Positions 60,596-64,000 of a stretch of 64,000 nucleotides of DNA are shown in pieces. Each line of letters opens with the position of its first letter. Positions within the stretch are counted from its first letter, which is position 1. The stretch is from Escherichia coli (GTDB lineage: Bacteria > Pseudomonadota > Gammaproteobacteria > Enterobacterales > Enterobacteriaceae). Position numbers and translations under genes: made by a program. The DNA is taken from NCBI RefSeq assembly GCF_002854065.1, contig NZ_CP024147.1; one strand, given 5' to 3'. The notes under the pieces were generated by a model. It searched no databases, was not told the origin of the DNA, and saw nothing but the letters and a program-made list of their open reading frames with translations.

Positions 60596-62507
60596 TCACT
60601 GGAAACAAGTAACCAGACCAGGTTTATTGGCTAACGTGATACTACAATCCTCTGTGCCAGTGCTCTCGTCCATCCCACACCGTTGAGAGGACAAGTAAGG
60701 GAAACTTGGCGAAGCTGGCCATCCCAGCGAATTAAACACAGCATACAATGTCTCTAACTCATTGTATGTCGGTGCATTTTCTATATTTCCACACTGCTTC
60801 GAGATATCCCATTTGCTGGCATCAGTAATATGCGCAGAAGCCCAGTTTTCGTAGTTAATAATCGGTGAGGATACGGGATTGGCCCCGGACGGTAATTCAG
60901 TTGTCAGTATCGGTCGATGTAATGTTTTTCCATTCACCACTGCCGTGTCTGCCATATGCCCCCAGAAGTGAGCAGAAGATACATTTGGGCTGGTCAATAC
61001 GGTGAAAATAGTGTCCATCATTGCAGTCACTGTTGGGTATTTATCCAGCGTTACCGTCAGCGGCGTTTTATAACCCGGCGTATTGTCCTGACGAACAGTA
61101 AAGTTTGCCGTGCCGTCTGCCCCCGTCACGCCACTGATCTCGTTCCCACTAACCGCTAATAGGGTAGCCGCCCCCGATGATGGCTGGATGGTAATATCAT
61201 CCATAGCCGCCACATCGCCATATAGCGTCGCCCCACTATTACGCGGAGAGGCATCACCACGTCGCAGAGTAAACGCCACATTTGGCACAGGTTTCCCGGC
61301 GCTGTCTTTCACCGTCACGGTGACTGGCATTGCCTCGCCCTTCTTCACTTTCGCCGCCTGAGTGGTGGAGTCAAATGCCGTTGACGTCAGGGTGACGGTA
61401 GAAACCGTTGAGTGAGGGTGCACCAGGCACGCCTGGAAGGCGCGGCTTTTAGATACAGTAACAATTTGACCTGTATTGAAGTCAAATGATTCACAAGAAT
61501 TCGCGCCCGCAGGACAATCTGCATTTGTCCACCACACATAGCTATTCTGTTTCACCGGCCAGCCAATCTCATTGACGATAGAGCCATTCGGATAGCGGTT
61601 GTATAAAGATTGAAGCTCATCCAACGATGGATATCGTGCGCTTTCACAAGGGGTAAGCTCCGGCAAATATCGCTGGGTAATATATGGCGCAGGCCAGCTT
61701 TCATTATTTATATTCACTTTAGTGAGCGAATAACCGCCACCGCTGGTTGCCCCCATTTCGGTCCACAGTTTCATCCGCTCAAACTGCGTTCCGTCTGCTG
61801 AGCTTACCGTTTCTGGCATATGTCCCCAGAAATTGGCTTTGGGCGTATCCGGGCTTGTTACTACGGTATACATCAGGTCGAGATCTGACTTTACCCCTGT
61901 GTCACGTGCAAGCGTCGCCGTAAACGGTGTTACCAGTCCCCAGGTATTATCCTGCGTAGCGGTTAACGTGATGATGCCATTACCGTCCGTAACCCCGTTC
62001 CAACTGGCGTTATCATCTGCAAATTTGTAATTGGCTTGCGCAACCGGCGTCAGGAACTGTAGCAGTAGATCATCTGCTGTCGAGCTTTTGAAATCACTCG
62101 TAGTGCGCACTTGTGCTGTCGCACGCGACAACGTGACGCTTTCATAGGCGGCAGGTCTGCCCGCATCATCCGTGACCTTGATGGTTAACGGTATTGATTC
62201 GCCCTTCTTCGCCCATGCGGTCGGACGGTTGTCGTTGATGCCTGTTTTGTCCGCATTCAGCAACGTAGAGGTCAACTCAATCTTCGTTGCCTCAGTGTGC
62301 GGGGTCAACCAGGCAGAGCATTAAATTGCCCGCCGTCGATGTTGTGCTTTCGTTGCGGATAGCACCGTCCATCAGATTAAGCACCTGGTTATACCATGTT
62401 GAACTTGAAACAGTTTGATCGTACGCCCACCAGTAATTACCTGCGTTAAGAGGCAGCCCCAAATCAGTTTCCAGCGCACCATTTGGATGGTCGTTGTAAA
62501 GCCCCAT
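60596..62507 (-). pseudogene. RatA/RatB-invasin-like repetitive Ig-domain protein, C-terminal part, reading frame broken
   Basis: ORFs 62292-62507 and 60596-62308 share the repeat architecture of the upstream ORF (WGHM motif, LYN...GWP motif, VTVKD..G.P....FTL.RGD Ig-like motif); frames joined only by a 1-nt shift in the G4 run at 62301-62304. Confidence 0.55.
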
Positions 62508-64000
62508 TAGCTCGCTACTGAAGGGTTGATAAGGCGAAGTGCAGCCTGAGTAGGGATGTATTCCGCACCACAGCCATTATTACTGGCATCTGCAGCCTGC
62601 GCCACGGTAAACAGCGCCCAGGTTTCGTTCTCTTCGTCCTGGGATTTACGCTTTTTAGTCACCGCCAGCTCGGCAAACAGTAACGGACGTTTAAAGGTCA
62701 GCCCGCCCGCCGTCAGCGTTTCCGGCATGTGTCCCCACATTTTCGCCTTGTCTGTATCCGGGCTGGTGGGTACGGTGAAAATGGTATCTATCGATGCATT
62801 TATCGTTGGATCAGAATAGAGCGCTGCAGTGATCGCTGTTTTGGTGCCATGGGTCTCCGGGCGAGTGATGGTCAGAATTTTGCTGCCGTCAGCGTCGGTT
62901 AACGCGGCGTATGCGGTGGCAGAGTCATTCAATGACGCTTCATCGGACATTCCTGCATCAACCACTACTGGCGAGACAATATTGTCACTACCTGCGACAT
63001 GTCTTTCATTATTTCGGGTATAGCCATCGCCACGTTTCAGGGTAAACGGCATTCCCGGCATAGGGTTGCCCGCTGTATCTTTCACCGTGACTTTCACTTG
63101 TAACGTTTCGCCTTTTTTCAGTTTTGCCGCATTAAGCGTGCTATTCCACTGTGCCTGATCCACGACTTCCAGCGTAATGGTGCTGGCAGGTGGGTTGGCG
63201 TCCTTCAGGCAACTCATATATACCCGATCATTGCCCGTATTCTGAACATTGCCATTATTCAGCCAGACTGAGGCAAGGTGCGGGACTTTATCAATCGGCG
63301 TGCTGCTCCAGTACTCTTTAAATACCGTAGGCCAGCCGTGATTGGTTAGGATCCTGTTATTACTGTTCGCATTGTACAACGCAGTCAGTTGTGTTTGACG
63401 CGGTACTTTCCGGGTTTCACACCCGCCCGCCGACGTGTTTTCGATATCGGCCTGTGCGACGATCACCCATTTTTCGTTATTTTCCTCACGCGAGTCTTTG
63501 CCATTACTCACTTCCAACAATAATTTCGGGCGATTAAAGGTCGTGGAGTCAACGGTTATCGTGTCGTCCATGTGCCCCCACATTCTCGCTCCCATCACAT
63601 CCGGGCTGGTGGGAACGGTAAAGATCACATAATAGTTAATAGTGTTCGGCAAAACTGAATTAGGAGGCGTGACAACAAGTCGCGTTCTTAAGCCAACGCC
63701 TTGTGGCTGCTCAACAACAACGGTTGCCTGCCCCTGTGCGTCTGTAATACCGGAGTAAACCATTGAGAATTGTGAGGTACCGTACTGCGTCCCATTCAGG
63801 GTTATTGCGCCGTTACTGGGATCGGTAAACCCGGTTGCGCTTTCTTCACGGTCAAGACTGATATCTTTGGTAATAGTAAAAGCCGTGAACGGCACCCGCT
63901 CGCCATTCAGAGCATTAACTGTGCGCACCGTCATGGTGATTTGTTCACCGACTTTCGCCCGTGCCAGGCTGCCCGAGGTAGTATCACGATCGGTTGTCAC
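62507..64000 (-). CDS. RatA/RatB-invasin-like repetitive Ig-domain protein, 5' end beyond window
   Basis: Open frame runs to the window edge; contains two copies of the same module seen downstream; stop overlaps next ATG (TAATG at 62505-62509). Confidence 0.6.
   Translation of the reverse strand: MTTDRDTTSGSLARAKVGEQITMTVRTVNALNGERVPFTAFTITKDISLDREESATGFTDPSNGAITLNGTQYGTSQFSMVYSGITDAQGQATVVVEQPQGVGLRTRLVVTPPNSVLPNTINYYVIFTVPTSPDVMGARMWGHMDDTITVDSTTFNRPKLLLEVSNGKDSREENNEKWVIVAQADIENTSAGGCETRKVPRQTQLTALYNANSNNRILTNHGWPTVFKEYWSSTPIDKVPHLASVWLNNGNVQNTGNDRVYMSCLKDANPPASTITLEVVDQAQWNSTLNAAKLKKGETLQVKVTVKDTAGNPMPGMPFTLKRGDGYTRNNERHVAGSDNIVSPVVVDAGMSDEASLNDSATAYAALTDADGSKILTITRPETHGTKTAITAALYSDPTINASIDTIFTVPTSPDTDKAKMWGHMPETLTAGGLTFKRPLLFAELAVTKKRKSQDEENETWALFTVAQAADASNNGCGAEYIPTQAALRLINPSVAS

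Follow-up and report, generated by a model that had tools for sequence, protein, structure and literature searches.

A ratA-like gene of a sinH-sinI-ratA accessory island carrying two disrupting lesions in an Escherichia coli lineage

Introduction

Directly beyond xseA, at the end of a 64,000-nucleotide stretch of Escherichia coli DNA (contig NZ_CP024147.1, assembly GCF_002854065.1; this whole stretch is referred to as the window), minus-strand coding sequence built from a repeated module runs up to the last base analyzed. The question raised by this locus is which gene the repeats belong to and whether a working product could be made from it. A first-pass annotation, made from the sequence alone, had assumed a functional adhesin. 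The analysis presented here indicates, with a probability of about 0.9, that the region is the 3' part of an E. coli ratA-like gene, which comes third in a sinH-sinI-ratA ("ila", CS54-like) accessory island, and that the gene is disrupted in this strain. The family, the island, and the fold are already described; what is new is the disruption in this lineage and the assignment of the immunoglobulin (Ig)-like domain to BIg21 instead of Big_1.

The E. coli ila cluster (sinH, sinI, and ratA) is presented in PMC12928451 (citing Shea et al. 2022) as derived from Salmonella CS54 and tied to urinary tract infection (UTI) phenotypes. Shiga toxin-producing E. coli (STEC) O117 has been reported to carry a CS54-like island of 10 kb that includes ratA, sivI, and sivH (PMC3739510), and SinH is under study as a vaccine antigen of extraintestinal pathogenic E. 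coli (ExPEC) (PMC9937491).

Results

Identity of the gene

The minus-strand coding region begins, at its 3' end, with a stop codon at 60596-60598. Coding sequence reaches the window edge, but the proposed stretch of at least 3.4 kb was not borne out: it is divided among three open reading frames (ORFs), and no single open frame spans it. An intact allele, 99.9% identical to the window, is present in strain CUWW06 and encodes a protein of 2139 aa with a Sec signal peptide, an N-terminal region of approximately 190 aa, and seven tandem modules; the N-terminal domain itself (approximately 165 aa) is a conserved beta-sandwich. The gene runs approximately 2.18 kb past position 64000 to the signal peptide and N-terminal domain, both of which lie outside the window and were recovered from a 100% identical contig, L002 (MDGTLKLIKAITAVFLLFLSFQVGAV).

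Using NCBIfam, the best match of both large window ORFs was the RatA-like model NF011844 (E values of 2.5e-221 and 2.3e-240), followed by the RatB and RatA models. Together with the paired Pfam domains BIg21 (PF05688) and InvE_AD (PF05689) described below, these matches uphold the RatA/RatB-like identity proposed in the first pass. No intact allele lacking BIg21/InvE_AD was encountered, nor was the gene found away from sinH-sinI.

Two lesions break ratA in this genome

The lesions were defined by alignment to the 99.9% identical CUWW06 allele. The first is a deletion of 835 bp with its junction, a 6-bp microhomology (CCTGAG; CTCAGG on the coding strand), at 62545-62550. Module 4, up to and including CGAEYIPTQ, is thereby fused to module 5 immediately ahead of its conserved Cys, and neither the module register nor the reading frame is kept. 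A premature TAA stop at 62507-62509 (minus strand), 12 foreign codons past the junction, ends a 1224-aa N-terminal product, of which the part within the window is the minus-strand ORF at 62507-64000. The second lesion is one extra G in a GGGG run at 62301-62304, a +1 frameshift at the module 5/6 boundary that sits 244 nt downstream of the deletion. Stranded between the lesions is a 71-aa minus-strand ORF (62292-62507) holding the tail of module 5, that is, the second half of its adhesion domain. The downstream remnant at 60596-62308 (minus strand; 570 aa from a TTG start, or 555 aa at 60596-62263 according to gene callers) contains modules 6 and 7, has no signal peptide of its own, and covers positions 2126-2683 of the 2683 in the RatA-like profile (E value of 2.3e-240).

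Of 5426 complete E. coli genomes searched by megablast, 47 carry this allele at a coverage of at least 80% and an identity of 95-99.9%, always adjoining xseA. Neither lesion was present in any of the 5426; with the junction as the query, the 47 genomes that share the allele gave only split alignments, and all 47 have GGG where the window has GGGG. An exact look-up of the 71-aa ORF identified, in independent samples, approximately 10 contigs that share the 1224-, 71-, and 555-aa structure, one of them 100% identical to window positions 55000-64000 and six others 99.9-100% identical without gaps (Logan, ENA). The same ORF fragments were also found in one NCBI record.

Could the gene nevertheless be intact, and the deletion and extra G be the products of repeat collapse and a homopolymer error? 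In favor of this are the repeats in the gene, the position of one lesion within a G run, and the fact that the two lesions jointly restore the original frame, as the net length change of -834 nt places the downstream frame in register with the upstream one. Against an artifact, pairwise identity between modules is just 25-35% at the protein level, leaving no long DNA repeats to collapse; the junction is a short microhomology positioned out of register between modules; and three stop codons lie between the lesions in the upstream frame. In addition, the same three-ORF structure recurs at 99.9-100% identity in seven contigs that differ in sample and pipeline (Logan, ENA). An assembly or sequencing artifact is therefore very improbable. 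Their identical recurrence in seven assemblies of different sample origin leads us to consider the lesions real and, taken together, a precise marker of the lineage that carries them.

Two biological explanations for the arrangement were also rejected. Programmed frameshifting or phase variation is ruled out by the G run of only 3-4 bases, the deletion of 278 codons, and the stops between the lesions. Nor did intermodule recombination cleanly remove one module, as the breakpoints are 9 codons and 1 nt out of register and have just 6 bp in common.

Fate of the truncated product

The window copy of ratA is a dead or truncated lineage-specific allele (a pseudogene), from which the deletion and the extra G preclude a full-length adhesin; the functional product assumed in the first-pass annotation can thus be set aside. 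A microhomology-mediated deletion from module 4 to module 5 shifts the frame and ends translation at residue 1224, and the extra G introduces a second frameshift downstream of it. At most one signal-peptide-bearing product of 1224 aa, with three complete modules, could then be exported in this strain. The 71- and 555-aa remnants, which lack export signals, are most likely nonfunctional.

It is conceivable, if doubtful, that the 1224-aa product is exported as a shorter adhesin, so that the locus would be remodeled rather than dead. The N-terminal ORF is undamaged and shares its start and signal peptide with the 2139-aa allele. Its product retains the N-terminal domain and three complete modules, together with most of a fourth, in a family in which module number varies (five to nine). 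The truncated allele also occurs in several independent samples, beside sinH and sinI genes that are still intact. However, the out-of-frame deletion strips module 4 of the half of the adhesion domain that contains the second invariant Cys and appends 12 foreign residues, making misfolding likely, and an independent second frameshift has accumulated downstream of the truncation. Relaxed selection on ratA is further indicated by two other strains with the same allele (NZ_CM128593.1 and NZ_CP168984.1), in which ratA is interrupted by an IS1 or IS3-family element; these insertions are independent inactivations of the gene.

The lesion-bearing lineage has undamaged sinH (726 aa) and sinI (321 aa) genes, and its island otherwise matches that of CUWW06 at 99.95% identity. 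The IS1/IS3 insertions in two strains and the lesions described here suggest that some E. coli backgrounds can do without ratA even as they retain intact sinH and sinI genes, which is relevant to SinH as an ExPEC vaccine antigen. The correct label for the region is accordingly a disrupted ratA-like gene of an ila/CS54-like island and not an intact adhesin gene.

The repeated module

A repeated module of approximately 285 aa had been proposed, and the modules measured 263-294 aa. The pattern TGGGGNCAYATG, which encodes the WGHM motif, matched four times in the window against 0.08 expected, a number reached in none of 100 shuffles. The matches, all on the minus strand, lie at 60953-60964 (module 7), 61817-61828 (module 6), 62726-62737 (module 4), and 63569-63580 (module 3); the recurrence reported in the first pass therefore stands at 63569, 61817, and 60953, but its remaining site, given as 62724, should read 62726. 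A 60-nt direct-repeat family shows spacings of 864, 909, and 843 bp. The 909-bp gap, between the second and third WGHM sites, covers the deletion, in which a fifth copy of the motif (module 5 of the intact allele) was lost. In the 2139-aa reference the WGHM residues are at 332, 600, 868, 1149, 1439, 1730, and 2018.

Module 7, the C-terminal one, occupies 60599-61417 and module 6 occupies 61418-62299; each consists of BIg21 plus InvE_AD, and an AlphaFold2 model of module 7 had a pLDDT of 94.2. Module 4 (62546-63196) is cut short inside its adhesion domain and lacks the LY..GWP..C half, and module 3 (63197-64000) is cut off where the window ends, a point corresponding to residue 728 in the 2139-aa reference; all four are encoded on the minus strand. 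Invariant across modules are T.SP..A..WGHM, RP.L..E, E.W, C...P...L, G.P, and a terminal C. As the modules share so little sequence otherwise (25-35% pairwise), the duplications that produced them are old.

Pfam detected four BIg21 and InvE_AD pairs within 1138 aa at the C terminus of the reference allele, with E values of 1e-16 to 1e-35, and both domains are also found in the precomputed annotation of ORFs identical to those of the window. The Ig-like part, proposed earlier as Big_1 (PF02369), is instead BIg21, since the Big_1 matches were nonsignificant (E values of 0.047-0.79). The second domain of the module is InvE_AD, a named adhesion domain that forms a C-type-lectin-like head with two invariant cysteines; a Cys209-Cys271 disulfide is predicted in module 7.

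A sequence search of the PDB returned a single match, InvE of Yersinia pseudotuberculosis (5N40; E value of 2.3e-15). This protein, from which InvE_AD takes its name, was deposited as an invasin/adhesin and ends in the same BIg21 plus InvE_AD unit as the RatA modules; RatA differs in having seven such heads in series and no barrel. A literature search for Yersinia InvE turned up no paper. The resemblance to domains D4-D5 of invasin (1CWV) and D2-D3 of intimin (1F00/1F02) is distant, with 12-20% identity and no significant Big_1 match.

A profile search of 1.84 billion representatives, from which an alignment of 57 module sequences was built, identified only 384 related clusters. These comprise multimodule Rat-like proteins, the full-length representatives of which have five to nine modules, and long proteins with one C-terminal module. 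A homologue search with module 7 was less useful, yielding just 23 matches, mostly fragments.

Within BIg21, the tripeptide RGD is encoded at 63026-63034 (module 4, FTLKRGDGY) and 61253-61261 (module 7, FTLRRGDAS). At this site several modules have R-x-D, while R-G-D is present in many homologues, and a structural role for the tripeptide is more likely than integrin binding.

The island, its spread, and its boundaries

The first-pass annotation had noted that K-12 carries only yfgJ and der at this site, that the xseA junction of Salmonella holds the CS54 island, and that the region is accessory; the first and the last of these were confirmed, and the locus here proved to be CS54-like. In MG1655 xseA overlaps yfgJ, with der directly after. 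In CUWW06 the RefSeq order is xseA followed, on the opposite strand, by the 2139-aa adhesion-domain protein, a SinI family protein, sinH, the zinc-ribbon gene yfgJ, and der, and the contigs identical to the window have the same order. A sinH-sinI-ratA island thus occupies a CS54-like locus between der/yfgJ and xseA. SinH and SinI exceed their NCBIfam cutoffs.

A homologue of the ratA 3' end was found in 1749 of the 5426 complete genomes and sinH, at a coverage of at least 80%, in 1740, so that approximately 32% carry the island. Its alleles are strongly diverged: sinH of the CFT073/ST131 type is 78-80% identical to that of the window type, and the corresponding ratA 3' ends are approximately 70-79% identical (DNA, over partial length). 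The ila locus of uropathogenic E. coli (UPEC) CFT073 and of avian pathogenic E. coli (APEC) (Shea et al. 2022, as cited in PMC12928451; IatB/SinH in PMC6714894) shares its site (der/yfgJ to xseA), gene order, and protein families with the window, whereas the CFT073/ST131 locus belongs to a different allele group; the window allele, in 47-48 of 5426 complete genomes, is the one in which ratA is disrupted here.

RatA and RatB of the Salmonella CS54 island (NF011843 and NF011842; Kingsley et al. 2003, as cited in PMC3739510) have the same DUF823/DUF824 (BIg21 plus InvE_AD) modules and N-terminal domain, and their genes are likewise flanked by xseA and downstream of sinH-sinI. CS54-type islands contain two rat genes and shdA, in contrast to the one rat gene and no shdA of E. 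coli, and the RatA and RatB models are 1860 and 2435 aa long against 2139 aa for the intact E. coli allele.

Homology to K-12 breaks off where der ends and is regained within the 3' end of xseA, at window position ~60445 or below. Both the C-terminal ~50 aa of XseA (the last ~80-150 nt of the gene, window ~60380-60527) and the N-terminal half of YfgJ (L002:2410-2625) are alleles diverged from K-12. The variable segment thus exceeds the three island genes, and its recombination boundaries fall inside the flanking core genes. The G+C content of ratA (50-54%) is like that of the core genome, and composition is therefore no marker of a foreign origin of the gene; low G+C content (40-42%) is confined to the yfgJ-sinH promoter region and the 5' end of sinH.

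Linkage within the cluster extends beyond this allele. All of five diverse Rat-like proteins are encoded directly downstream of a SinI-sized gene (~320 aa; split in one case), and in the four contigs long enough to judge this gene is preceded by an IAT_beta gene (~730 aa). One of the diverse loci is of the CS54 type, with two rat genes and a PATR autotransporter gene. Contig L013 (Logan ERR11042535) has a complete IAT_beta/SinI-like/Rat-like triad, the last with five modules and 1562 aa, at a chromosomal position unrelated to this one and flanked by cca and an SH3_3/CYTH-CHAD gene pair; the three genes thus travel together. In L014 and L015, which represent one diverged island, the SinI-sized gene was predicted as a pair of ORFs (120 and 140 aa) and may be another decayed component of such a cluster.

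Proposed function and export of the intact protein

Intact RatA would be a multivalent adhesin, located at the surface or secreted. Sec would carry it into the periplasm, and from there it would need the co-encoded inverse autotransporter SinH to cross or dock on the outer membrane, as ZirS and ZirU do on ZirT. The conserved gene linkage supports the inferred dependence on SinH. Heinz et al. (PMC4943183) advanced the hypothesis that SinH-type inverse autotransporters have Rat-like proteins as substrates, in analogy to ZirT/ZirS/ZirU, and Goh et al. (PMC6714894) drew a ZirT-type analogy for IatB/SinH as well. In the Salmonella ZirT/ZirS/ZirU system an IAT barrel protein is followed by barrel-less secreted partners, an operon logic like that of sinH-sinI-ratA; the domain families of ZirS/ZirU differ from those of RatA and SinI, and the likeness is one of analogy only. 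SinI itself gave a weak match to ZirU_fam (E value of 4.7e-5).

Nothing speaks against the identification of the gene, but some points qualify the account. The intact 2139-aa allele scores 3195.6 bits against NF011844, and the window fragments 737.7 and 800.9, all below the equivalog cutoff of 3870 (4079 for NF011842 and 3700 for NF011843). By these profile scores the allele is RatA-like and not a strict equivalog of the curated models, and RefSeq accordingly names it "adhesion domain-containing protein". The route of RatA export through SinH has the standing of a published hypothesis only. Finally, a review states that sinH is cotranscribed with sinI and leaves ratA unmentioned (PMC12525524); given also the REP-like palindromes in the sinI-ratA spacer, ratA may be expressed apart from sinH-sinI. 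This spacer (290 bp; L002:6037-6326) contains REP/BIME-like palindromes of the GCCTGATG...CATCAGGC and GCCGCATCCGGC types.

Another reading takes RatA for an intimin/invasin-type inverse autotransporter adhesin that exports itself. A terminal Ig-like plus C-type-lectin-like adhesive unit was indeed found; it is common to RatA, InvE, invasin, and intimin, and the weak Big_1 matches point the same way. No ratA fragment, however, gave any match to IAT_beta, a domain present in the neighboring SinH, and self-export of RatA is hardly credible.

It is also unlikely that intact RatA is no host adhesin but a periplasmic or matrix protein acting in biofilm formation or cell-cell aggregation, or a binder of bacterial surface glycans. 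The SinH orthologue IatB mediates biofilm formation (PMC6714894), and C-type-lectin-like heads have ligands of many kinds. Intestinal or urinary-tract colonization and UTI phenotypes have, however, been described for island genes in Salmonella (ratB) and UPEC (the ila genes), according to citing papers (PMC3739510 and PMC12928451), and the nearest structural relatives of the modules are host-directed adhesins, both of which speak against this reading. On the Rat export route and the ligands of the lectin-like heads the window itself adds little.

RatA and SinI share a motif just past their signal peptides, LKGGQWQQTGISTDAINGTVP in RatA (L002:6405-6467) and LRAGQWQSETETTGTIQGTVP in SinI (L002:5173-5235). 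Its general form in the mature N termini of SinI and Rat-like proteins is L-K/R-x-G-x-W-Q ... T-x-x-I-x-G-T-x-P (LKGGQWQ...T..INGTVP). The SinI-Rat similarity had a BLASTP E value of 8e-4 and an hhalign probability of 70% (E value of 4e-5). The motif hardly varies among 13 Rat-like proteins whose identity is otherwise less than 50%, and it does not occur in SinH; its N-terminal half falls in a predicted disordered tail, ahead of the beta-sandwich domain, which has no close solved relative. Speculatively, it could be a tag that directs SinI and RatA to SinH, making sinH-sinI-ratA a two-partner-like type Ve export system, in which case the truncated product, with the tag and three heads, might still be displayed.

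Features at the xseA end of the window

The convergent neighbor of the ratA remnant is xseA (458 aa; 59151-60527, plus strand), and the stop codons of the two genes are separated by a spacer of 68 bp (60528-60595). A scan of 60300-60800 found no consensus promoter or terminator, and a scan of the whole window at the Rfam gathering thresholds found no RNA family. ARAGORN detected neither tRNA nor transfer-messenger RNA (tmRNA), and the site is therefore not a tRNA-linked integration site. Plus-strand ORFs of 63-87 aa within the ratA region were unsupported and were treated as spurious.

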